Of a DNA stretch of 64,000 bases, positions 2,500-49,440 are shown piece after piece. How positions within the stretch are numbered: position 1 is the stretch's first letter; each line of letters starts with the position of its first letter. The notes under the pieces are model-generated. The model saw only the letters and a list, made by a program, of their open reading frames with translations, was not told the origin of the DNA and did not search any database. The DNA is taken from the NCBI GenBank assembly GCA_000092065.1, contig CP000594.1. One strand, written 5' to 3'. A program made the translations under genes and the position numbers. Source of the DNA: Ostreococcus lucimarinus (Eukaryota).

Positions 2500-4392
2500 A
2501 TGGCTGGCGATGACGTGGTGGGGACGAGTGACAACGTCGACGTCGAAGCGTTCCAGTCGCGCGATCGCGTGAATTGGGCCGACGACGGTGACGCGGCGAG
2601 CTCGTCGGACTCGGACTGGCTCGAACACGACAAAGCCGACGAAAGCTCCCTTGGAATCGATGTGATTCGTCGATTGATGACGGCGAACGAACATGACGAA
2701 AACGTGGAATGGGCGCGCGTGAATCAGTCGGCTTCACGGCTCGGCACAATGCGACAACAAGAGATCCTTGCATTGGAACGTGCGACCGCGAAGAAACTGC
2801 GTAAACACAGGCGGAGGACGAAAGTCACAAGCAAAAGCAAAGCACGAATCTTATCCTCCGAAACGTCAAGAATGGAGCTTCCTGAATCCACGGTTTTGAC
2901 GTTGACGTCGGCCAAAGAGTCAGCGAAGAGGATCGTATCAATCAGGGACGATATCGAGGTGGTGATTCACGACGTCCAGACCAGCGGCGGCGTGTACAAA
3001 TCATCGCATAAAAAAACGTTCGTGCAAATAGCGTGGAAGGAAAAACGAAATGCAACTCGCAAGGTCAAGACACGGAGAATAGAGGGTACAGAGAATCCAT
3101 CTTGGGACGCGCAAGGGAAGTTCATCTTTCAGAATTGTCGGGCGAATGCGGCTGGCAGCAAATTCGTCATCAAACTAAAGGAAGTGCGCTGGTTTAAAAG
3201 AGAAACAGTCGTTGGTTACGCAAAGATTCCGAGTACTTTGGTTCCATTGGATGGGACGAAGTTGAAGCTTCGCATCGCGCTCGTGACGAAAAGGCACAGA
3301 GCCAAGGCTGTGCTGAGCATGACAATCGGAAAAGCGACGTTTGAGGAGCCAGCGCTGGGGGAGGGTGGACACTTTCCCGTCGTCACCGGCGCCGAACAAG
3401 AACTCGTCTCATTCGAAGGAAACTTTCCCTCCAGGCGCGAAAAATTAGACTTGATGGTTGTTAACGTGATGAGCGCTCGCGGCGTATTCGACGCCGATGG
3501 GTTCGGTACGAGCGACGTGTTCATCAGACTCGGTTTCGACACTACGCCCATCGAAGAACGCTACCAAACTACGATTAAGTACCGCACTCGCAATCCTGAG
3601 TGGAACGAGCGTTTCTTGTTGCGTGTACCAAGCGTCGATGCAGCTAGGGGCGAACCCAAAGCAATCGTGTTCACGGTGTGGGACAAGGACAGATTCTCGC
3701 CGAGCGACTTCCTTGGGGCCGCCGCTATTCCACTCGACCGTGTTTCGACTACTGGCAGCGTCGCGGATTTGGACATGGATTTGAAGGCTAGAATTGCGCC
3801 GGACCTCGCGGGTGAGGTGTGCTTCATCCATCCACGCGCACCCGCAGATTTGGGTAAACTTCGAGTCAAGGTTTCGGCGCTCATCAGTGACGCCGCCGAA
3901 ACAATCGCAAAGACAGTCAATTTAGGAAGGATAGATCCCACTGAAGGCACAAGTCTGGCTACGAGCGTACACGTCGCCGTCATCGCGGCGAGAAAGTTGT
4001 TACATGTTGACACCAAAGGGTCCTGCGATGCTTTCGCGTACGTGCGAATGGACAATGCGCCCAAGAATGAATTCTGCAGGACAGATACAATCGCAAACAC
4101 GCTCCATCCCGTGTGGAACAACGGCATGGGAAAGACCTGTTCTCTCATCGCTCGTCCGGGCTCTGGAGATGTCTTGTTTCAATTGTACGATCGCAACCTG
4201 CTTAGCAAAACGCTCATGGGAACTGCGTCGGTGTCGTTGGCGTCTCTGCCTCCAGATGGTTCATGGACACAAATCGCAACTCCAGTTTATGGCCAGGACA
4301 AGAATCGAAACACTCTCGTCGGCGGTTCGGACAGTTCCATGGCATGGAACGCTCCAGAGAGAGTGAAGGGTGAAACTCATCGTTCGCCTTAG
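2500..4392 (+). CDS. Multiple-C2-domain protein, N-terminal segment; probably the same gene as 4370..7339 (MCTP/QUIRKY-like)
   Basis: Real ATG at 2500. C2-domain signatures are present (GTSDVFIRLGFDTTPIEERYQTTIKYRTRNPEWNERF...VWDKDRFSPSDFLGAAAIPL, plus a second C2 at DAFAYVRMDNAPKNEFCRTDTIANTLHPVWNN). The frame ends at 4392, and the downstream frame continues the same kind of protein. Confidence 0.55.
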   Translation: MAGDDVVGTSDNVDVEAFQSRDRVNWADDGDAASSSDSDWLEHDKADESSLGIDVIRRLMTANEHDENVEWARVNQSASRLGTMRQQEILALERATAKKLRKHRRRTKVTSKSKARILSSETSRMELPESTVLTLTSAKESAKRIVSIRDDIEVVIHDVQTSGGVYKSSHKKTFVQIAWKEKRNATRKVKTRRIEGTENPSWDAQGKFIFQNCRANAAGSKFVIKLKEVRWFKRETVVGYAKIPSTLVPLDGTKLKLRIALVTKRHRAKAVLSMTIGKATFEEPALGEGGHFPVVTGAEQELVSFEGNFPSRREKLDLMVVNVMSARGVFDADGFGTSDVFIRLGFDTTPIEERYQTTIKYRTRNPEWNERFLLRVPSVDAARGEPKAIVFTVWDKDRFSPSDFLGAAAIPLDRVSTTGSVADLDMDLKARIAPDLAGEVCFIHPRAPADLGKLRVKVSALISDAAETIAKTVNLGRIDPTEGTSLATSVHVAVIAARKLLHVDTKGSCDAFAYVRMDNAPKNEFCRTDTIANTLHPVWNNGMGKTCSLIARPGSGDVLFQLYDRNLLSKTLMGTASVSLASLPPDGSWTQIATPVYGQDKNRNTLVGGSDSSMAWNAPERVKGETHRSP

Positions 4393-7339
4393 CGCAACAA
4401 GAGAACCTTTCGCGAATGCTCCCAAACCGCCGCCCATATCCGAAATTGATAGATACGTCGTACATCACGAAACCAACAAATACTTGTACGTTCAGGGCAT
4501 GACATACGAAGGGTTACCGATTCGTCACGGCGCCAAGAGCACAAATATGCAGATCCGCATGTCGCTCAACACGCATAAGGATATAGTCTACGGAAGCGTG
4601 CAAAGGGGTGTGATGTCTAACTTTCACTTTGATCCCGAAGTCGCGGTGTTGCCGAAGACGACTCTAAGTCGGACATTGACGATTCAGGTTGTCTCAGAAC
4701 TGAAGAGTGTGTACGGCTCGCACACGTTTAGAAAGGCCTCGCGGAAAGTATTGAACTTGATGGGACTTGAGAAAAAGAAAGAGGATGATTTGTTCACATT
4801 AAACGAGACGAATGGAGACGTAAACGTCAATCAAAGCGATGACGATGAAGACGCAGACATTCAGTACGCGCAGAGTGATGAGATTTTTGTGAAAGGGAGT
4901 GCCATCGGTTACGTGCAGATTCCCGTCGAAGACTTGCTCGTCGGAGACTTGGTGCGAAAAAAGTTGAAACTCAAGCCGATGATGATGACAAAGTCCTGGC
5001 TCAAGATGAAGGAAGACCAATTGGGCGAAATAGAAGTCATGATTGGCTGCGGTTACTCGAAATTGGCACCGAAGGACTTGGAATTGATCAGCCAAGTCGC
5101 AAGACCGACGATCGGGAAGTTCTCATTCAACATCGCCTCCGTCGTTGGCGATCGAACGCCGTATCAACATGTCGCACCGATCATCGACAGCGTGCTCTCC
5201 ATGACTGATGAAAACGAGAAGTTTGGACGACATGTATACGCGACGGTGATGTGGGATGGTCGCGAAGAGAACATTAAATCTTCGCAAGAACGTTTCAACT
5301 TTTCCATAACGGAAATTTCTGGCGAAATCAGGGTACTTTTCAAGTGCCCGGATGCGATCAGTGGTGGCGAGCAGATTCTAGGCGCGATTTCGATTCCAAT
5401 CTCCAGCGTTCTCAAAGCGCAGGGTAGCTCCATCGATGCTTGGTTTAACATCACGCCTCCAAATCCAGCATTTCTGACGGAAAATGAAATGGCTGACCCG
5501 AGTCACGCCATGTGCGTGTACGCGCGTTCGAGTAATAATCCAAACGACTGGCAAGGTTTCGCTCGCATCAGGCTTTCTTTCGTACCAAAGGGTGGTAGCG
5601 CGCCGTGGGAGTGGTATCTCAAACAATCACCGATGGGGGTGAAGACGGCGCACATACCGGATACCATCGATGGTGTGCTCTTGAGTCTGCGGCATTTCGT
5701 CGAGTCTGTGCTCCTTCCCGCCAAGACGTTTGCAAGGGCGGCGATTTTCTACTCAAAGCCAGAGAGTCGATTGCTCAAGCTTTTATGGTTTGCGTATCAT
5801 ACCACGTGTTGCGCAGTGTTTCAATGTAAAATGGTGAGTACATTCATACTTTTATGGATAGTTCCTGGCTTGTTTTACACTGGTTTCTGCTCAAGCATCG
5901 TCGTCAGCGAGATTTGGTCAAACGTGTCTGCGTTTAAAGATGATGACGATGAGCTTGAAGCGTTGCGCGTTGAAGTCAATAAGATGGCTAAGATGCGAAA
6001 CAAAAAGATTCGCGAATTTAGAGATAAAACTTTGGAAAAGTGGAGATTGAAGAAGTTGCTTAGCCAAGGTCGCGACGTGACCATCTCGAGCGACGCCGTG
6101 AACGAAGGTGTAAGACGTCGCAAAGCAAAGCGCGCTCGCTTGGGTGTCGACGACGAACTTCCAGCGGTGGCGACCGTGTTTTTGCCGCGAAATATGATGA
6201 ACTACGTCATTGCTGTGGTCACGTCGTCGAATCCCGCAGAAATCGTGTTGAGGGCTATCAAAAAAATTGTTTGGAAATTACTCAATGTGATAAAAGGCGC
6301 AAGCGTCAAGTTGGTGCGAATTGACAAGGTACTCGCGTCTGGTGGCCCTCGAGTCATGCCAGGTCTGTGTCGGCGCGTGGGTGTAGAGTTGGAAACACTC
6401 GCAGATAAGTTTGGCCGACCCACACAGTTGGTTTCGTGGGGAAATACCACTTTGACCATGTATTTCTCGCTACTCACGTGCGCGCTGACGTTAGCGTTCT
6501 GTTGCGCTCTCTTTGCGTTGCAGCAATTCTTTGCATTTATCGACCATTACTCTCCTCTGCGCATCTGGCACGTCATCTGGTTCATCGGAATCGCGCCTAC
6601 TTTACCGTTTTTGAGTGAACAAATGTTGCAAGCAGCGGTAGCGCTCGACACGGGCATGCAGCTCTTCGTCGGTCTGTACGTGCCTGTGCGGCCAATTTCT
6701 CTCGTCACCATAAAAGCGATCAAACAGTCGCTCGACATCCAACTCACAGATAACTGTAAAGTTTTGTACGAAACGGTGAAAAAGGAAGTGAATGCGGAAA
6801 TCACGAACCGAGAGCTTTTGAGACGAAAGCAAGAGGCGGAAAAACTGGGCGCTTCGCAGAGAAATTTCTGCAAGAACAGATCGAATCCGATCGCCTGGCT
6901 AGCTTCGGCAATTCAACGCGCGCCGACGGAACGGGACATGATGCACGAAGCACGTATGCGCGCGCTCATGGTTCCTGGGCACGCACACCCACCCGATGTA
7001 TCGATTTTCCGAGAAAATGTCGACGTGAGACGCGCCTCCGCCTACGCGCTCGGAAAGCTGCTCGCGTTCGCCATCGCCATTCCCATCAGAGCGCTCAACG
7101 CGCCCATGGGCGTGATGAAAATGTCTAGCGAGAAACGGTTGGATGCATATGATGCGTGCACGCAACTGTGCGCTCTCAATTGGCTGCGTTACGAGTCCCG
7201 AGGCAATCTCCCCTTCGGACACCGCAAAACCGTCGTCACACCGATGGCCGCCGACGGCATTGAACGCTCGCCCGCGGGCGCTCGCATCGTCGACGTCGTC
7301 GACGAAGACATGACGAAATCAAGCATCGAATCGACATAA
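4370..7339 (+). CDS. Multiple-C2-domain and transmembrane-region protein, C-terminal segment (MCTP-like); frame-shifted continuation of 2500..4392
   Basis: Open frame from 4370 (a GTG, not a real start) to the TAA at 7339. It has further C2-like regions and several hydrophobic segments near the C-terminus (LLTCALTLAFCCALFALQQFFAFIDHY, IWHVIWFIGIAPTLPFL). The locus is lower in GC (about 50%) than its flanks. Confidence 0.5.
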   Translation: MKLIVRLSATREPFANAPKPPPISEIDRYVVHHETNKYLYVQGMTYEGLPIRHGAKSTNMQIRMSLNTHKDIVYGSVQRGVMSNFHFDPEVAVLPKTTLSRTLTIQVVSELKSVYGSHTFRKASRKVLNLMGLEKKKEDDLFTLNETNGDVNVNQSDDDEDADIQYAQSDEIFVKGSAIGYVQIPVEDLLVGDLVRKKLKLKPMMMTKSWLKMKEDQLGEIEVMIGCGYSKLAPKDLELISQVARPTIGKFSFNIASVVGDRTPYQHVAPIIDSVLSMTDENEKFGRHVYATVMWDGREENIKSSQERFNFSITEISGEIRVLFKCPDAISGGEQILGAISIPISSVLKAQGSSIDAWFNITPPNPAFLTENEMADPSHAMCVYARSSNNPNDWQGFARIRLSFVPKGGSAPWEWYLKQSPMGVKTAHIPDTIDGVLLSLRHFVESVLLPAKTFARAAIFYSKPESRLLKLLWFAYHTTCCAVFQCKMVSTFILLWIVPGLFYTGFCSSIVVSEIWSNVSAFKDDDDELEALRVEVNKMAKMRNKKIREFRDKTLEKWRLKKLLSQGRDVTISSDAVNEGVRRRKAKRARLGVDDELPAVATVFLPRNMMNYVIAVVTSSNPAEIVLRAIKKIVWKLLNVIKGASVKLVRIDKVLASGGPRVMPGLCRRVGVELETLADKFGRPTQLVSWGNTTLTMYFSLLTCALTLAFCCALFALQQFFAFIDHYSPLRIWHVIWFIGIAPTLPFLSEQMLQAAVALDTGMQLFVGLYVPVRPISLVTIKAIKQSLDIQLTDNCKVLYETVKKEVNAEITNRELLRRKQEAEKLGASQRNFCKNRSNPIAWLASAIQRAPTERDMMHEARMRALMVPGHAHPPDVSIFRENVDVRRASAYALGKLLAFAIAIPIRALNAPMGVMKMSSEKRLDAYDACTQLCALNWLRYESRGNLPFGHRKTVVTPMAADGIERSPAGARIVDVVDEDMTKSSIEST

Positions 7340-8223: not shown

Positions 8224-9261
8224 ATGCGCGTGCGAGCGACTGACGTTGCGCGCACGCGACGGATCGCCGCGCTGAATTTATCGGCGACATTGCGAGCGCG
8301 AGCACCGACGCGCGCGCGCATGGGCGCCCACGCGTCGTCGGCATCGGCGTCGGCATCATCGGCGCTCGTCAGCGCGGACTGGCTGGACGCGCACCGCGAT
8401 GACGTGCAGATCGTCGATGCGTCGTGGCACATGCCGGATTTGAAGCGAAACGGTGCGCGTGAACACGCGCGCACGCGGTTGACGCCGCAGACGGTGTTCT
8501 TCGACGTGGACAAGGTGAGCGACGGGCGAAACCCAGCGCCGCACATGCTGCCGAGCGCGAAGGCGTTCGAGGCGGCGTGCGAGACGTTGAAGCTGACGAA
8601 AACGAAGCCGATCGTGGTGTACGACACGAATGGAATGTTCTCAGCCGCGCGTGCGTGGTGGATGTTTCGCGCGCACGGATGGGAAAACGTGAAAGTTTTG
8701 GACGGAGGGAAACCTGCGTGGGACGCGCGCGCGTACGCGAGCGACGACGCCGAGCGCGCGGAGGAAGACATCGCGGCGCACGTCGATGCGTGCGCGCGCG
8801 CGATGCGCGCGCTCGGTGACGATGTGCCGGGTGATTTCAAAGGTACGCGCGCGGAGTTGGTGAAAACGAAAAGAGAAGTCGTCGAAAACATCCAAACTAA
8901 ATCGTTTCAAGTCGTCGACGCGAGAGGCGCGGCGCGCTTTCGCGGCGAGACGAAGGAGCCGCGCGAGGGCGTGCGTTCGGGGCACATTCCTGGAAGTAAA
9001 AATGTGTTCTTCGGCGAACTTTTGAACGAAGACAAAACGTTCAAGCCCGTTGAAGCGCTTCGCCAGGTGTTCGAGACGAGCGGGTTAGATTTGAGCGCCT
9101 CGGCGAAACCCATCGTGGCTTCGTGCGGCACCGGCGTCACGGCGGCCATCGTAGCTCTCGGATTACATGAATGCGGCGTCGAGGCCGCGGTGTACGATGG
9201 ATCTTGGACTGAGTACGGTGCGGACGCGCAGTGTCCACTCGCCACGGGACCGGCGGCGTGA
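8224..9261 (+). CDS. 3-mercaptopyruvate/thiosulfate sulfurtransferase (tandem rhodanese domains)
   Basis: Two rhodanese domains. The active-site loop is CGTGVTA (the MST-type CG[ST]GVTA). The N-terminus is ADWLDAH...VDASWHMP. There is a real ATG at 8224, giving an R-rich presequence; an alternative ATG lies at 8320. Confidence 0.75.
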   Translation: MRVRATDVARTRRIAALNLSATLRARAPTRARMGAHASSASASASSALVSADWLDAHRDDVQIVDASWHMPDLKRNGAREHARTRLTPQTVFFDVDKVSDGRNPAPHMLPSAKAFEAACETLKLTKTKPIVVYDTNGMFSAARAWWMFRAHGWENVKVLDGGKPAWDARAYASDDAERAEEDIAAHVDACARAMRALGDDVPGDFKGTRAELVKTKREVVENIQTKSFQVVDARGAARFRGETKEPREGVRSGHIPGSKNVFFGELLNEDKTFKPVEALRQVFETSGLDLSASAKPIVASCGTGVTAAIVALGLHECGVEAAVYDGSWTEYGADAQCPLATGPAA

Positions 9262-9752
9262 GAACGCGCTCGTTCTCACGTTCTGTGACTCGTTTGCACG
9301 TTCGACTCGCTCGGCTTCCAGTCCGCCTTGCGCGGCGGAAAGTTCTTTACGCTGGGTTTATACCTCGACTCCTTCCCACTCGATCGCGCCGCCGGGTGTA
9401 TGCACCCTACAGTGGTGTGATCGATGTCCCCCTCGCGATCGGTCGACACCGACTGAGCGAAGAAATCGTACCACGCGTGTTCTTGGCCCTGCTTTTTCGC
9501 CTCGTCGGGTCCAAACTCGCACTCGTACAAGGAACCGCGTCGTTCGGGTTCGCTCTCGCGCGCGCCGCCGGCGTGAATGCTGTATCCCATCGTTCGATCG
9601 ATGTATTCGAATCTCTCGCGCCGTGTTGTGTTGTAACGCCTCCAGAAACGCCCGCCTCGATTTCCGCGCCGGCGTTAGTCTCGCCGCCGACGCGACATGT
9701 GGATCAGATTTCGAGACGCCGCCGCCACCCACGCGGCACTTTACGACACGAC

Positions 9753-42362: not shown

Positions 42363-44097
42363 ATGATGGTGATGATGAAGACTGAAGACTGAAGACTGAC
42401 GCTCGCGAACGAACGCGCGAACGCAGCAACCGCAAATCGTGCTGCTCAGGGAAGGCACGGACACGTCGCAAGGACGCGGACAGTGCGTGTCGAACATAAA
42501 CGCGTGCTGTGCGGTGGCGGATACGGTGCGAACGACGCTTGGACCGCGAGGATTAGATAAACTCGTGCGAGACGCGCGAGGAAACACGACGATTTCCAAC
42601 GACGGCGCGACGATTATGAAACTGTTGGAGATTGTGCATCCGGCGGCGAAAACGCTCGTGGACATCGCGAGAGCGCAGGATAGCGAAGTGGGGGACGGGA
42701 CGACGACGGTGGTGATACTGGCGGGGGAGCTGTTGAAGGAGGCGAAGACGTTCATCGAGGACGGCGTGCACCCGATGAATGTCATCAAGTCGTTTCGAGA
42801 GGCGTGCGATTTGGCGACGGCGCGCGTGCGCGAATTGGCGACGTCCATCGAAGGGAACAGCGCGGAGGAGAAGGATGAACTTTTGAAGAAATGCGCGATG
42901 ACGACGCTGAGCTCCAAACTTGTAGGAGGGGAGAAGGACTTCTTTGCCGACATGTGCGTCAAGGCGGTGCGCTCGCTCGATCAAGACTTGTTGGACCCGA
43001 AGATGATTGGCGTGAAAAAGGTCATGGGCGGAGGGATGACGGATTCGTTCTTGGTGGATGGCGTGGCGTTTAAGAAGACGTTCGCCTACGCCGGCTTCGA
43101 GCAAATGACGAAGAGCTTCAAAAAGCCGAAGATTTTGGCGCTCAACATGGAGCTCGAACTGAAGAGCGAAAAAGACAACGCCGAGGTGCGCCTGAGCGAT
43201 CCGACCAAGTATCAAGAAATCGTTGACGCTGAATGGAACATCATTTACGAGAAGCTCGACAAATGCGTGGCGTCGGGAGCGAACATCATTCTGAGTAGAC
43301 TCGCGATCGGGGACTTGGCGACGCAATATTTCGCCGACCGCGGATTGTTTTGCGCCGGTCGCGTAGACGCGCAGGATTTGGAACGCGTGACGCGCGCCAC
43401 CGGCGCGCCGGTGCAGACCACGGTGAACAACATCACGGACGCCCAGCTCGGATCGTGCGAGTTGTTCGAAGAGATTCAAGTCGGTAACGAACGGTACAAC
43501 ATTTTTAGAGGTTGTCCGCAGGCGAAGACATGCACGCTCATCTTGCGCGGCGGCGCCGAGCAATTCATCGAGGAGGCGGCGCGCTCGCTCAACGACGCCA
43601 TCGAAATTGTTCGCCGCGCGGTGAAGAACGCGGCGATCGTCCCTGGTGGCGGTGCGATCGATATGGAGTTGAGCAAGTACTTGCGCAACCACGCGCGCAC
43701 GGTGGCGGGCAAATCTCAGCTCTTCATCAACGCCTTTGCCAAAGCTTTAGAAATCATCCCGCGACAGCTCTGCGACAATTCCGGGCACGACGCGACCGAC
43801 GTGTTGAACAAGCTCAGACAAAAGCACGCGGGCGATGACGGGGCGAATTTCGGCGTCGATGTCAACGGAGGTGGCATCTGCGACACGCACGAACGCTTCA
43901 TCTGGGAACCGAGCCTGGTGAAAATCAACGCCCTGAACGCCGCCACCGAAGCGACGTGCTTGATTCTCTCCGTGGACGAAACCGTGAGAAACCCGCGAAG
44001 CGAAGGCGCGGATGAAGGCATGGGTGGCGGCGGTGGTCGGGGCATGCCGATGGGAGGTAGAGGAGGTGGTCGCGGCCGGGGTCGCGGCCGACGATAG
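42363..44097 (+). CDS. CCT7: T-complex protein 1 subunit eta (CCT7); join(42363..42368,42427..44097) with a 6-nt coding micro-exon
   Basis: Exon 2 opens [16 protein letters not shown]...[25 protein letters not shown] and ends with the CCT-eta RG-rich tail [26 protein letters not shown] sits in frame 9 codons upstream of exon 2, so the Met must come from exon 1 (ATGATG). The 58-nt intron GTGATGATGAAGACTGAAGACTGAAGACTGACG...CGCAG has a CTGAC branch and yields MMQPQIVLL, compared with animal MMPTPVILL. Confidence 0.8.
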
Positions 44098-44145: not shown

Positions 44146-46503
44146 CTAGTCGCCGTCGTCGCTACTGAGCTCGCCGCTAAGAATGGAATCGTCGACGTAC
44201 AGATCCGAGGTATCCAACGCGTTGATGTATCTCGCGAGCATCGCCGCGGACTCCTCAGCCTCTTCTAATTCTTCTAAACGCACTTTCGCGTCCTCGTCTT
44301 GAAGATGCGCGTATTTAGGCGCCCAGGGCGAACCGGGTTCGTCGTCAATGGGCGACCCTGGACTCGTCTCGCTCGCCGGTTCGGGCGTCGGCGCGGCAAC
44401 GGATGGCGACTGTGCGGACATCAGAGCGTCTCTCGACAATCGCGACGCTTCGTCCGGCAAGTGCTCGTCCACATGCACGTTTCTCGCGGCGAGAAGGACG
44501 TTGTGTATGAGCATCACCGCCACCGGTTCGAAAATGCCCGACGACGTCAGCGTCGGCGTGCGAACGCCCGTCGTCAAATCCATGATGTCCCTGGGCGTGA
44601 GCACGGCGAATTTCTTCGGCGCAAATTGAGCGGCGGCGTAAGATGCGAGTCCAATCGACGTCGCGGAGGCTAAAGATCCTAGCAACGAAGGTGCGCCTCG
44701 CGACAAGTGCGCGTCGGCGCTTTCGTCGAGTACGTCTTCGTCCGCGGCGCCGCAGCGGCGCGAAAACGGCGCGCCGTCGAGCAACATTCCGAACACTTCT
44801 TCCGCCGTCTCTTCGACATCTCCCGGACTCGATGGTCGCATCGTCGACGCCCATTCTGACGAAGCGAACGCGCACGTCACGGCGTGTCGGGAAACTTCGT
44901 CCGCGTGGCGCGGATACGCCTTGGCTAATCGCGACCGCAGCGTCGCCATGCGAGGATGTCGGCACACGCCGTCCAGAACAATCGTCGACGCCGGTGCGAG
45001 TCGGCCGCGTTGCGCGCGACCGACCAGACGCAGCGTCGCGACTTCAAATGCGCTCAACGACGGGTGCGATGCGACGCGAAGAGCAAACATCGCGTGACCG
45101 GTTGAACGAAATTTCGGAAGCGCGTCGAGCTCGCTCGGATCCGTCGCCGGACACTTTCCGGTGTCCGCGCCGAGGGTCAGCGCGGAGTACAATATATCGA
45201 TCCAATTCGCCCCGCGTCCGACGCCGGTGACTTTTTCGACGACGCGCGACACGCTCCCGCCTCTCGTCTGCAGTCCGCACATCGGATCCCTGAGCAACTT
45301 CCACGCCTCGGCGTGCGGATCCAAGTACGCCGAGCTTCGACACAGCGTCACTCCCAACCGCATGCCGAGTCGAACGCGCTCGCGCGGAGGAAGCGTGGCG
45401 AGGAGTAAGAACGGGCGTATCAAACCGGCGCGGTACGCCTTGTCTCGGTAATCGCTCTCGCGGTCGAGAACGTCAAATATGAACCCCGCGCGCTCGTCCG
45501 CGGCTTCGCGTTTCGCCAGCCGCAAATCCCACCCGCGCGCGATCTCCTCCGCCGACGCCGTCGCCGTCGCCGCGTCGTCCCCGCGGCTCAGCGCGCGCTT
45601 AAACGCCTTCGCCAACGCCCCGATCGTGGGCACGGACACGTGTCCACCGATGTTTATTCTGCGCGTCGTCGTCTCCGCCGCGGCGCACCTCGCGCACGAT
45701 CCCCCACCCGGCCGCGAGCGCTTGCGCATCACCTCCGCGTCCTCGCCGCACCGCTCGCACGCCGCCGTCCCCCCCCCACACACCATGCACTCGTACGCGT
45801 CGCTCCCGCGCGTCCCACGCCTGACGTGCGAACTCTTTTCCCCGCACCACGAGCACCACGCGACGCGTCTCGTCGCCGCCGCGAACGCCTCGCTCGTCGT
45901 CCACGTCTCCACCCATCCCGCGCACTTCGCGCACCTCCCGTCCCCGATCTTCGCGAATCCCTCCGCGCATCGTTCGCACTTGTGCGTCGCCCTCGCGCAC
46001 CGCGCGCAGTGACTCAGATACGTCCCTCTTCTCCCCGTCGCTCGCGTCACTCGATGTCGCGTCTCTTTGCCGCACCACGAGCACCGCCCGCTCGGCGACA
46101 TCCTTCGCGCGACGCTCTCCACCCCGTCCCCGCCCTCCGCGTCCGACCACTTGAATCCATCATTATTTTTCGTCACCGCGCACGCGCACGCCAGGCACGC
46201 GTCGTCGTCCCATCCGTCGCCGCTTCTCGCCATCGCTCGACACGTCGCGAACCGCGCGCACGCCCGCGTCCGTCCCGCGCACGCCCCGCACGCGCGCGGC
46301 GCTCGCGCGGCGCTCGACCGCGTCACCGCCGCGTGCGACGTCTCGTGGAAGCACCACGAGCACCGCGCGATGAGCGCGCGCGTCGCGGCGGGCGTCGGCG
46401 CGTCGCGCGACGTCGAGGCGCCGGACGCGCTCGGCGTCGCGCTTCGCGTCGAGCGCGCGCGCGAGCTCGGCGCGCGGTCGAGCGCGTCGCGCGCGTCGCG
46501 CAT
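44146..46503 (-). CDS. Hypothetical 785-aa protein with three repeated Cys-rich modules (CSWCG-x-ET/KS-x-H ... C-x2-C ... C-x-RC)
   Basis: ATG at 46503. The modules are CSWCFHETSHAAVTR..., CSWCGKETRHRVTR...HCARCARATHKCERCAEG, and WCSWCGEKSSHVRRG...ECMVCGGGTAACERCGED. The remaining roughly 500 aa are unrecognised. Confidence 0.5.
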   Translation of the reverse strand: MRDARDALDRAPSSRARSTRSATPSASGASTSRDAPTPAATRALIARCSWCFHETSHAAVTRSSAARAPRACGACAGRTRACARFATCRAMARSGDGWDDDACLACACAVTKNNDGFKWSDAEGGDGVESVARRMSPSGRCSWCGKETRHRVTRATGRRGTYLSHCARCARATHKCERCAEGFAKIGDGRCAKCAGWVETWTTSEAFAAATRRVAWCSWCGEKSSHVRRGTRGSDAYECMVCGGGTAACERCGEDAEVMRKRSRPGGGSCARCAAAETTTRRINIGGHVSVPTIGALAKAFKRALSRGDDAATATASAEEIARGWDLRLAKREAADERAGFIFDVLDRESDYRDKAYRAGLIRPFLLLATLPPRERVRLGMRLGVTLCRSSAYLDPHAEAWKLLRDPMCGLQTRGGSVSRVVEKVTGVGRGANWIDILYSALTLGADTGKCPATDPSELDALPKFRSTGHAMFALRVASHPSLSAFEVATLRLVGRAQRGRLAPASTIVLDGVCRHPRMATLRSRLAKAYPRHADEVSRHAVTCAFASSEWASTMRPSSPGDVEETAEEVFGMLLDGAPFSRRCGAADEDVLDESADAHLSRGAPSLLGSLASATSIGLASYAAAQFAPKKFAVLTPRDIMDLTTGVRTPTLTSSGIFEPVAVMLIHNVLLAARNVHVDEHLPDEASRLSRDALMSAQSPSVAAPTPEPASETSPGSPIDDEPGSPWAPKYAHLQDEDAKVRLEELEEAEESAAMLARYINALDTSDLYVDDSILSGELSSDDGD

Positions 46504-46641: not shown

Positions 46642-47478
46642 TCAGCGTCGGGCGCGACGCACGCGATCGCGCATTCTGAACGCGCGGTCGTCCGGCGACG
46701 CGCGCTCGAAGGCGACGTCGCGAGGCGCGTCGACGACGGCGCGGCGGACGCGCTCGGGACGCTCGGGAAGCGGCGGCGCGGGTCTGCGCGCGGCGTCGAC
46801 GTCTAAACCGGCGAGCAAACGCGTGAGCTCTCGCGTGCTCACGGGACGCTCGCCCGGGGCGCGCGTCATGCACACGGCGTCGACGCCGTCGGCGTAGTAA
46901 CCGCGACGCGAGCCGCGCGTCTCGAAGCCGCACTTTTCGTACATGGCCAACGCGGCGACGTTGGTCGCGCGCACCTCCAACGCGGCCGCGTTCGTCGGCT
47001 GCAGACCTAACATGGCTTTTAACACGCGCGCGCCCAGGCCTCGGCGTCGCAGCGATCGCCTGGTCGCGATTTGCGTCACCTGCGTCTCGCCCGCCACGCA
47101 GACGCAAAATCCAATCGCGCCGACGACGCGCGCGTCCGATTCGCTCGCCTCGCCCGCCGCCGGCACCGCCACCAGCGCTCTGTGCGTCTTCGACGTCTCC
47201 GCGTCGACGCTTCGCTCGAGATCGTCTCGCACCGTCGCCTCGCTCCAATCGACGTCGGCGTCCGCGCACAGCGCCGTCGCCGCGTCGAAGTCGCGTCGAC
47301 GCGCCGGTCGAATCGCCCACGCCGCGACGCCTTCGCACAGCGCGTCCGTCGCGCTCGACGACGCGTCGCGAGAAGACGCGTTTCGCGACGCGTCACGTCC
47401 CGTCCGCGTCCGCGTCCGCGTCGCGCCGCGAATCGTCGCGAAACGCGGCGTCGTCGCGCCACATTCTCGAATCTTCAT
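46642..47478 (-). CDS. GNAT-family N-acetyltransferase (RimI/NAT-like)
   Basis: Acetyl-CoA-binding motif IATRRSLRRRGLGARVL plus VRATNVAALAMYEKCGFE. The start is MKIRECG (47478). Confidence 0.6.
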   Translation of the reverse strand: MKIRECGATTPRFATIRGATRTRTRTGRDASRNASSRDASSSATDALCEGVAAWAIRPARRRDFDAATALCADADVDWSEATVRDDLERSVDAETSKTHRALVAVPAAGEASESDARVVGAIGFCVCVAGETQVTQIATRRSLRRRGLGARVLKAMLGLQPTNAAALEVRATNVAALAMYEKCGFETRGSRRGYYADGVDAVCMTRAPGERPVSTRELTRLLAGLDVDAARRPAPPLPERPERVRRAVVDAPRDVAFERASPDDRAFRMRDRVRRARR

Positions 47479-47655
47479 TCGTCGCGCGCGCGCGCGCGCG
47501 CGCCGCGTCCGCGTCGCCGGCGCGCGTCCGCGCGCTCGAGCTTCGCAGGTCTCTGTACGCGCGTCCGCGGACGCGCACGAGCGCGCGCTCGTTCGCGGGC
47601 GACGCGATGATGACGACGCGCGATGCGACGCCGGCGATTCGATTCGCGCCGCACA

Positions 47656-47937
47656 ATGCCGCGCGACGACGACGACGACGCGCGACGACGCGCGGACGCG
47701 CGCGCGACGGTGTCCGGCGAGCGACGCGACGGCGCGCGTCGCCGCGCGCGCTCGAGGTCGAGCGAGGGACGACGACGACGGTCGAGGTCGGATTCGCGAC
47801 GACGACGACGACGACGCGACGACGCGAGCGACGACGCGCGCGACGACGACGCGCGCGAGCGACGACGCGCGCGACGGTCTCGGTCTCGGTCTCGGTCGCG
47901 ATCGAGGGACGACGCGCGACGAAGGCGACGACGACGG

Positions 47938-47972
<35 letters not shown>

Positions 47973-49440
47973 GCGCGGGCGGACGCGACGCGCGAGTCGA
48001 GATCGCGAACGACGCGAGGGAAGGACGAGGCGGCGAAGGAGTCGAAGCGAAAGCGCGCGGAACGAACGAAGAGGACGAAGATCGAGAAGCCGGGATCGCG
48101 AGCGACGGCGAGGACGGTCGAGATCGAGGTCGAATTCGAAGACGCGGCGACGCGGCGGACGAGCGAGAGCGTCGCGATGGGACGAGGACGGCGACGAGGA
48201 CGGGGACGGGGAGACGAGGGTGGATTTTGACGACGCGCGAAGGGACGCGGGGAGAGGTGATGAGAAATCGACGCAGTTGAAGACGCAGATCGAGATGATG
48301 CGAGCGCTGAGCTCGACGACGAAGGATGGGGTGAAGCGAGCGATCGAAGAGGCGCGAGAAAAGGCGGCGACGTTGATGGGAGAGGCGGCGCCGGCGCGCG
48401 TCGCGGCGGCGAAGGGTGACGCGAGCGGTGAAAGTGCGAGTGGTGGTGGGGATGCGCGCGCGCCCGTTCGGACGATGGCCGTTAATGTCGCGAAGGCGGC
48501 GCCGAAAAGCGCGCGCGACGACGAAGACGCGGGCGTCGTCGGAGATGGCGCGAATAGTAAAAAGGCGACGTATTGCGTGGAGCACTACGACATGGACGTC
48601 AAGTACGAAGGTTTAATCATCGGTCCGGGAGGCGCTACGATTCGTAAGCTGCAGCAGGACATCGGGACGTCCATCGAGGTCGTACGTGGCGAAGGGAAAT
48701 TACAAATTAAAGGATCCAGAGAGAAAATTGAGTACGCGCGGAAGATGCTCGATGAATTCTTCGAGCAAAAAGGATCGAAGACTGTCAAGGTGAAGTGCAA
48801 GGCACGATCGGGTCTGATCATAGGTAACGCTGGACAAACGATCAAAGCCCTTAAGGAGCAAACTGGCTGTCGTATAGAAGTCATGCGAGACGTCGAAGAG
48901 TGCGTCATCACGGGCCCGGGCGATCGCGTCAAAGTGGCGCAAGCCATCGTGGAGAAAATGATTGCGGATTCCTGGGAAGAAGGTGCCGATGGCGATATTA
49001 CCATCGTCGAGGAAGTGATTCCGTGCGCGTACAAGGCTGGCGCTATCATCGGTCCAAGCGGTGGGACGATTCGGCACATTCGCGAAACGACTGGAGTGGC
49101 GATTGACATCGAGCGCGGCGCGGACGGTTGCAAAGCGAGCGATCAGTGCCGCATAATCGGCACGCCGGCGCAAGTTAAAAAAGCTGTCGAAATTGTTCAT
49201 CAACTCTTGAAGGAGATGAACCAAGCGCAGTTGCAAGCCGCTCCAGTGGTACCGCCAATGTATGCGTACGGATACGGAACGATGCCCAACGCATACGCCG
49301 CCGTTCCGGGAATCCCAGTCAATTCATCGCAGATGCAGCAGATAGATCCGCAGACTGCCGCGTATTACGCGCAATGGCAGGCGTACTATGCGGCTCAGCA
49401 AAATACTGTGATGCCTCCGCACCCACCAGCCGATGGGTGA
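47656..49440 (+). CDS. KH-domain RNA-binding protein with N-terminal RS/RD-rich domain and C-terminal Q/Y-rich tail (FUBP/KSRP-like)
   Basis: Three KH domains (LIIGPGGATIRKLQQDIGTSIEV; LIIGNAGQTIKALKEQTGCRIEV; AIIGPSGGTIRHIRETTGVAIDI). N-terminus RSRSRSRSRSRDD...poly-D. C-terminus YAYGYG...AAYYAQWQAYYAAQQ. The start is uncertain. Confidence 0.6.

Follow-up and report, generated by a model that had tools for sequence, protein, structure and literature searches.

A predicted double-zinc module of zinc-ribbon character and a divergent YaaW/JukA-like domain in a protein of Ostreococcus lucimarinus

What kind of protein is encoded by a cysteine-rich open reading frame (ORF) of the green alga Ostreococcus lucimarinus? 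The ORF lies on the minus strand at 44146..46503 of the 64,000-nucleotide stretch of contig CP000594.1 (assembly GCA_000092065.1) that was analysed here and is called the window. It is intron-less and complete from ATG to stop, and codes for 785 amino acids (aa) plus the stop codon. Clustering of proteins at 90% and at 100% identity (P0001) places it with XP_001421374.1, annotated as 'predicted protein, partial [Ostreococcus lucimarinus CCE9901]'. The original prediction, made from the DNA alone, had pointed to a thrice-repeated cysteine module of possible novelty. We report that this repeat is, as far as sequence comparison can tell, an unnamed and probably double-zinc unit of zinc-ribbon character, and that it precedes a domain which, by way of its family, is assigned to YaaW/JukA as a divergent member.

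The window protein contains 31 cysteine residues, 25 of them within residues 46-275, and 11 CxxC motifs. Shuffling of the same protein gave a mean of 1.18 CxxC motifs with a maximum of 7, and 0 of 100,000 shuffles reached 11. Pairwise BLASTP comparisons among the three repeats yielded E values from 3e-11 to 4e-14. The shuffles and the repeat comparisons demonstrate that the three-repeat unit is real and far beyond chance, as was also borne out by a hidden Markov model (HMM) of the module described below. The ligand cysteines were all kept in orthologues of 63-85% identity and in homologues as distant as 22% identity. A profile search of 1.84 billion representative proteins retrieved 914 family members at E<=1e-3, 521 at <=1e-10 and 184 at <=1e-30, the 914 representatives being counted at 50% identity and many of them being without a taxonomic label. 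A chance cysteine-rich ORF or an annotation artefact might come to mind for GC-rich DNA, and the window does hold many long spurious ORFs on both strands. Yet the conservation of the ligands already refutes this explanation, and the number of representatives, the confident AlphaFold2 (AF2) models and the shuffles speak against it as well, so that its probability is negligible.

The module HMM was seeded with three copies from one well-conserved homologue and iterated over all fetched proteins. It found 409 copies (333 unique) in 155 of these proteins, three per protein being the commonest number. Each module has 61-66 aa and comprises four cysteine pairs, i.e. eight ligand positions, a conserved histidine and a closing tryptophan. 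Thus the unit is longer than the 45 aa first proposed, and four cysteine pairs replace the three motifs (WCSWC..H, CARC and CERC) assigned to it; the literal 'CARC...CERC' pattern is a good fit in module 2 only. The consensus reads GWCSWC-x5-H-x9-R-x2-Y-x-C-x2-C-x3-T-x2-C-x2-C-x3-M-A-R-x6-D-x2-C-x2-[C/H]-x-G-x4-W. The predicted ligands are C48, C51, C72, C75, C82, C88, C103 and C106 in module 1, C141, C144, C166, C169, C176, C179, C191 and C194 in module 2, and C217, C220, C239, C242, C249, C252, C270 and C273 in module 3, where all eight cysteines were invariant across a 20-sequence alignment. The segments of the window protein are as follows.

46369..46503, minus strand: N-terminal extension rich in Arg, Ser, Ala and Thr (residues 1-45), poorly conserved in alignments and without a counterpart in most non-Mamiellales members
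46171..46368, minus strand: zinc module 1 (residues 46-111), module HMM E 2.2e-15, conserved histidine H56
45898..46089, minus strand: zinc module 2 (residues 139-202), module HMM E 5.7e-16, histidine H150 and closing tryptophan W201
45679..45861, minus strand: zinc module 3 (residues 215-275), module HMM E 7.9e-13, conserved histidine H226
45529..45678, minus strand: linker and Ostreococcus-clade-specific insertion (RRINIGGHVSVPTIGALAKAFKRALS...; residues 276-325), aligned in the closest orthologues only
44413..45528, minus strand: YaaW/JukA-like (UPF0174, Cbp3-superfamily) all-alpha domain (residues 326-697), assigned by the C-domain HMM, the AF2 model and the homology of the family to YaaW
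44149..44412, minus strand: acidic C-terminal tail specific to Mamiellales (residues 698-785), defined by alignment

Across the copies the ligand positions were about 100% cysteine with the exception of the sixth and the eighth. The sixth was cysteine in 77% at the usual column and was found one residue later in C-x3-C variants. The eighth was cysteine in 87% and histidine in 12%, an alternation which is the pattern expected of a metal ligand. Ligand conservation and the Cys/His alternation together indicate that the module probably binds zinc. From the eight ligands per module we infer that two zinc ions would be bound, probably in a sequential pairing of the ligands.

Modelling of residues 40-290 by AF2 on a 17-sequence alignment gave a predicted local distance difference test score (pLDDT) of 86 and a predicted template modelling score (pTM) of 0.76. 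The model consists only of beta-hairpins and short connecting helices. In each module CxxC pairs one and two lie at strand ends or turns in a zinc-ribbon-like manner, and the third and fourth cysteine pairs form a second small knuckle pair. In module 2, where the pLDDT was about 90-96, DSSP assigned strands at 99-102, 108-116, 123-127 and 133-136 (model numbering), which bear C102/C105 and C127/C130 at their ends or turns. In the predicted structure each of two consecutive beta-hairpins would carry a CxxC knuckle, which is how a zinc ribbon with its three-stranded sheet is built. CxxC knuckles at the tips of beta-hairpins are the modelled feature shared with LysW, the C-terminal domain of Rpb9/TFIIS, eL42 and the Pfam families DZR and Zn_ribbon_6. 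Unlike these, the module has eight ligands at a fixed C2-x20-C2-x6-C2-x15-C[C/H] spacing and conserved non-ligand residues of its own (S4, W5, H12, R22, Y25, T34, M44-A45-R46, D53 and W66), and none of the zinc-ribbon models reached the threshold against it.

The absence of a named family for the module, which had been suspected from the start, was confirmed in the databases. Pfam gave 0 matches at E<=10 for the whole window protein and nothing significant for 10 diverse family members. There was no match in NCBIfam, and searches of PDB sequences with the window protein and with the profiles of the family and of the module yielded nothing better than E 0.04. Foldseek, a check recommended with the original prediction, gave Rpb9 as the best match at E 0.53, and the best of the weak structural neighbours include zinc ribbons. 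When 23 isolated modules were scanned with Pfam at E<=10, only scattered sub-threshold matches appeared: DUF7129 in 6 of 23 (best E 0.006), zf-CHY in 4 of 23 (best E 0.027), zf_UBZ and zf-UBR in 4 of 23 each, and also RH_dom. The value for zf-CHY is about the chance level for 23 queries and lies below the gathering score. B-box and Rpr2, which like zf-CHY had been named as families that might claim the region, were not among the 25 most frequent Pfam families listed for the isolated modules, and whole proteins matched none of the three at E<=10 (window protein) or E<=1 (diverse members). DUF7129, zf_UBZ, zf-CHY, zf-UBR and RH_dom were each rejected as the identity of the module since the matches were below threshold and inconsistent between modules. 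Because they were inconsistent and disappeared when whole three-module proteins were scanned, we consider them noise of cysteine spacing. A literature search for 'WCSWC' returned nothing relevant and no description of the module, and none of Pfam, NCBIfam and PADLOC contains a model for it. Taken together, no profile assigned the region to a known zinc-finger family, and the cysteines are conserved in orthologues. Of the treble-clef or zinc-ribbon, zinc-binding unit originally proposed, what stands is a repeated and conserved unit that probably binds zinc and has zinc-ribbon character.

Three successive eight-ligand domains are also reminiscent of RING1-IBR-RING2, and weak matches to zf-UBR, zf_UBZ and zf-C3HC4_3 are scattered over the modules, as would suit an RBR/IBR-like or other cross-braced module of the ubiquitin system. 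These matches were far under the curated cut-offs and differed from module to module, however, and whole proteins had no IBR or RING match, nor was a structural resemblance to RBR modules seen. Furthermore, the three copies are equivalent repeats and not three domain types. The chance that the modules belong to the ubiquitin system is therefore very slim.

The 500 residues that follow the modules had been left unassigned, which proved wrong at the family level. Three motifs invariant in the C-terminal domain (C-domain) of the family, AGLIRPF (359), HAEAW (397) and ANW (432), are present in the window protein, as are all other invariant residues of the family, and the family C-domain HMM matched its residues 352-547 with E 1e-46. 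The AF2 model of this domain was all-helical with a pTM of 0.75. Residues from about 584 to 655 were predicted to be disordered and are followed by the C-terminal helix GIFEPVAVMLIHNVLLAARNVHVDEH (residues 656-681).

The relation to YaaW became apparent in bacterial-type members. The metagenomic homologue P0040 carries the name 'YaaW (UPF0174 family)' given by the Joint Genome Institute. In BLASTP its residues 269-511 matched residues 23-231 of an Acinetobacter 'DUF3944 domain-containing protein' with 27.7% identity over 249 aa (59 bits, E 1.4e-13). Diverse YaaW homologues for comparison were taken from plasmids. Alignment of the 274-sequence family C-domain profile with an 8-sequence YaaW alignment by hhalign gave a probability of 94% and E 1.4e-7 over 194 collinear columns. 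With PADLOC, JukA was the sole match for P0040 (E 3.3e-4) and P0039 (E 8.7e-3), both being weak. The YaaW of E. coli matches the JukA model of PADLOC (1.3e-57), Pfam PF03981 Ubiq_cyt_C_chap (Cbp3; 7.7e-16) and PF13099. The single E. coli sequence did not match the family profile significantly, PF03981 matched no family member tested, and a YaaW homologue retrieved no solved relative from the PDB. On profile comparison the C-domain of the family is homologous to YaaW/JukA (UPF0174, Cbp3-like).

At the family level the similarity runs collinearly through nearly all of YaaW (about 240 aa), and both share the C-terminal motif G-x-x-x-[RY]-x-x-x-P-A-[VA]-x-Q-I-x-x-x-R and lipid-hydrolase partners. 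On the other hand, the present family adds three N-terminal zinc modules and has diverged too far to be recognised by the curated models JukA and PF03981. Its eukaryotic members are stand-alone nuclear genes without an effector operon, and those of Mamiellales have a degenerate hydrophobic C-terminal segment and an added acidic tail. The Gly-rich hydrophobic C-terminal segment and the motif [YF]RVT[IV]PAV[IV]Q[IV] are clear in bacterial-type members (GSSLGRVFPAAIQILNQR), and the C-terminal segments of several eukaryotic members are strongly hydrophobic. The proteins of bacteria and of the other eukaryotes stop at an ...I-x-D-Y-Y terminus without the Mamiellales tail. Within the Ostreococcus clade the tail stretch EESAAMLARYINALDTSDL is conserved; more distant green-algal homologues (roughly 35-42% identity, presumed other Mamiellales) carry TG-x-ADRF-x-PA...DDGWPS-x-DEDE in the tail instead. 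The conserved stretch may be a short linear interaction motif.

The names given to YaaW in public databases deserve a remark. The YaaW of E. coli and Klebsiella (237-241 aa, PF13099 and PF03981) is widely called 'acidic protein MsyB' in NCBI, while the RefSeq name for K-12 is yaaW. MsyB is a different and shorter E. coli protein, and the label on YaaW looks like a propagated misannotation.

Next we consider where the family occurs and with which domains. It is not algal-specific, being present in bacteria and several eukaryotic supergroups. Among Chlorophyta it was found in Ostreococcus, Pyramimonas and Cymbomonas, and others that group with the Ostreococcus clade are presumed Mamiellales. Amoebozoa are represented by Balamuthia, Clastostelium and Cochliopodium, Holozoa by Chromosphaera and CRuMs by Diphylleia. 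In a scan of one genome per prokaryotic species the full architecture was detected in metagenome-assembled genomes (MAGs) of Myxococcales, Bradymonadales, Polyangiaceae and Acidimicrobiia. Metagenome loci held uninterrupted ORFs of about 530 aa on contigs of 40-69% GC. As a described architecture, the combination of the module with a JukA-like domain was not found in the searched databases and literature.

When 190 family proteins were examined, 110 had modules and the C-domain, 55 the C-domain without modules and 24 modules without the C-domain. Many of the 55 are fragments, and some are complete with other N-termini; Pfam found no domain in 17 proteins that have such an N-terminus and the C-domain alone. 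Among the 24 without the C-domain are four phospholipase D (PLD) enzymes of protists (P0319, P0320, P0327, P0333) with two N-terminal modules each, and one DUF639 protein. A Pseudomonadota MAG (locus L013) encodes a DUF726 alpha/beta-hydrolase joined to a single module. Leucine-rich repeats (LRRs) precede the full architecture in two proteins (P0237, P0256), and an ELMO domain was seen in one protein. The modules of the protist PLDs stand N-terminal to the HKD domains, i.e. in the position of the PX/PH and C2 domains of canonical eukaryotic phospholipase D, whose folds are unrelated to the module. By analogy, the shared position suggests a targeting role for the module.

Tandem cysteine-rich modules and a basic composition would also suit a nucleic-acid-binding zinc-finger protein, a regulator of transcription or RNA, as would the name 'Transcription initiation factor TFIID subunit 1' which the Balamuthia mandrillaris member P0047 (KAL6068421.1) bears in NCBI. 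Yet this name has no supporting domain, Pfam showing neither TFIID nor any other DNA-binding domain in that homologue. No similarity to a DNA- or RNA-binding zinc-finger family rose above threshold, and the fusion partners are PLD, DUF726, ELMO and LRR and include no nucleic-acid enzymes. We thus consider a nucleic-acid-binding function most improbable.

Two further database entries were noted. P0017 (NCBI, 449 aa) joins a C-domain fragment of an orthologue to a KH domain (PF00013) and is probably a gene-model fusion. P0300, a C-domain-only protein of 739 aa, has a weak Pfam match to RdRP_2 (viral RNA-dependent RNA polymerase) at residues 83-206, N-terminal of its JukA-like domain; with E 4e-4 it is below the cut-off and probably spurious.

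In bacteria the neighbourhood of the homologues could be inspected. At locus L014 a gene for a DUF726 alpha/beta-hydrolase (8401-9705, plus strand; E 2.3e-9) lies directly downstream of the bacterial homologue. No recognisable effector gene was seen at L012, L016 and L009. The class of partner common to the zinc module and the JukA-like domain is the lipid hydrolase, as seen in the module-DUF726 fusion, the DUF726 gene beside the homologue and the module-PLD fusion.

Several details of these loci are recorded for completeness. The N-terminus of the L014 hydrolase has four copies of a different cysteine repeat (C-x-C...C-x2-C). Upstream of the homologue at this locus are a YhcG PDDEXK nuclease and a putative zinc metallopeptidase (2919-4046 and 4999-5583), a context which resembles a defence island. 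Ahead of the bacterial-type homologues, and in the same orientation, stand small conserved ORFs of about 110 aa, either one or two of them.

L014:6072-6419, L015:1834-2166 and L009:~698-1006: small ORF S1, mutual matches E 1e-12 to 4e-16
L016:2813-3148, L010:1399-1641, L011:1205-1528 and L017:221-552: small ORF S2, tblastn E 3e-11 to 2e-48

This arrangement suggests an operon of two to three genes made up of S1/S2 and the homologue. Pfam gave nothing significant for S1 and S2, and neither the eukaryotic proteins nor the window contain a counterpart of them. At L012:3752-5356, on a 129-kb contig of a Polyangiaceae MAG with the same sequence in L015, the GC content of the homologue is 58%, against 71-78% in its flanks. 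It contains one in-frame stop after codon 412, through which the tblastn alignment continues. Recent acquisition of an island, decay to a pseudogene or an error of sequencing could each explain these features.

What might such a protein do? JukA, formerly YaaW, is described as the sensor of Juk, a bacterial system against jumbo phages; JukA moves to where phiKZ infects the cell and there recruits JukB (bioRxiv 10.1101/2022.09.17.508391). It co-occurs with varied effectors, and fusions to a patatin-like hydrolase, to a GTPase, to TerB and to a 'Zn-finger' are noted, the last appearing only as a tree label (bioRxiv 10.1101/2022.09.17.508391). According to a 2026 review, the phage proteins that JukA detects are those anchored in the vesicle of early infection, and its effectors include phospholipases (PMC13282480). 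Homology and domain association lead us to favor, with moderate confidence, a membrane-proximal sensor or adaptor in which zinc modules are combined with a JukA-like domain. A client that is hydrophobic or anchored in a membrane would be bound by the JukA/Cbp3-like domain, and recognition of the target, either a protein or a lipid head-group, would fall to the rigid zinc modules.

Several observations weigh against this view of the window protein. Alignment of its own subfamily with YaaW by hhalign was not significant (E 0.41), and neither the JukA model of PADLOC nor Pfam PF03981 matches it. Because the direct comparison of the subfamily failed to reach significance, the YaaW/JukA assignment of the window gene is transitive, via the bacterial-type members, and only by this route would its C-domain count as a divergent YaaW/JukA domain. 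Of the Gly-rich hydrophobic C-terminus typical of YaaW the window protein keeps only a degenerate form (SSGIFEPVAVMLIHNVLL), and the preceding segment is predicted to be disordered. Ordinary housekeeping genes (CCT, GNAT, KH) surround the gene, and neither a viral homologue nor a virus-linked context was found; scans of viral contigs with the module alignment and the window protein gave no relatives. Membrane association, the role as sensor or adaptor and any part in antiviral defence are what we infer from the relatives, and while the domain-level conclusions are fairly secure, the functional ones are not.

The same superfamily offers a different function. Cbp3/UQCC1, the assembly chaperone of mitochondrial cytochrome b, is connected to the present family via YaaW, and both are all-alpha and, in our family by analogy, would bind hydrophobic clients. 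The JukA family aligns lengthwise with Cbp3, which was the only eukaryotic branch recognised (bioRxiv 10.1101/2022.09.17.508391). The window protein could thus be an organellar assembly chaperone, whose Cbp3-like domain holds a new hydrophobic membrane subunit, with zinc modules of a DnaJ-type-like kind as in plastid assembly factors and the N-terminus as a transit peptide. The match of YaaW to Ubiq_cyt_C_chap and its lengthwise alignment agree with this, as does the 45-residue N-terminal extension of the window protein, which is basic and hydroxylated. However, most eukaryotic members (Balamuthia, Clastostelium, Chromosphaera) and all bacterial-type ones begin at module 1 without a presequence, and the family is present in non-photosynthetic organisms and bacteria. 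No direct similarity to Cbp3 was detectable; Cbp3 is without zinc modules, and the phyletic patterns differ. PF03981 itself recognised none of the tested members, and the other partners of the module are lipid hydrolases, not assembly factors. A chaperone of this kind is rather improbable.

A membrane-proximal sensor or adaptor may be given a more specific form. The window protein would be the eukaryotic counterpart of a Juk sensor, i.e. an innate antiviral sensor or adaptor, e.g. against prasinoviruses in Ostreococcus, for viral proteins or virus-associated membranes. The CSWC module would act as a recognition domain not noticed before, which in other organisms would also direct PLD and DUF726 lipases to their targets. 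This version is speculative and, on present evidence, unlikely; if true, it would add a further immune module common to bacteria and eukaryotes.

The genomic setting of the ORF is GC-rich, intron-poor and eukaryotic. Its neighbours in the window are the following.

42439-44097, plus strand: CCT/TCP-1 chaperonin gene
about 46642-47400, minus strand: GNAT acetyltransferase
47623-49440, plus strand: KH-domain protein

The segment 46001-48000 is the GC maximum of the window (73%). It holds the intergenic or 5' region of the gene and the GNAT acetyltransferase on the minus strand, together with the N-terminal half of the KH-domain protein, which is extremely rich in Arg, Asp and Ser. Long spurious ORFs run across this segment in all frames.

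What is new here is an unnamed, putatively double-zinc module of the ribbon type, together with a branch of the YaaW/JukA family that belongs to eukaryotes and myxobacteria. The predicted two-zinc domain is conserved and without a Pfam or NCBIfam entry or a PDB relative, yet it is widespread in bacteria and at least four eukaryotic lineages. The analysis provides a first annotation for a family called 'predicted protein' in Ostreococcus and mislabelled as a TFIID subunit in Balamuthia. Eukaryotic nuclear genomes hold JukA/YaaW-like domains besides Cbp3. Since the module is common to JukA-like proteins, phospholipase D and DUF726 hydrolases, it leads to a testable hypothesis on the targeting of Juk-type sensors and lipid-hydrolase effectors. 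The close relative O. tauri can be modified by homologous recombination, and the viruses of Ostreococcus are well studied. Thus an immune role of the protein would be directly testable in this genus.

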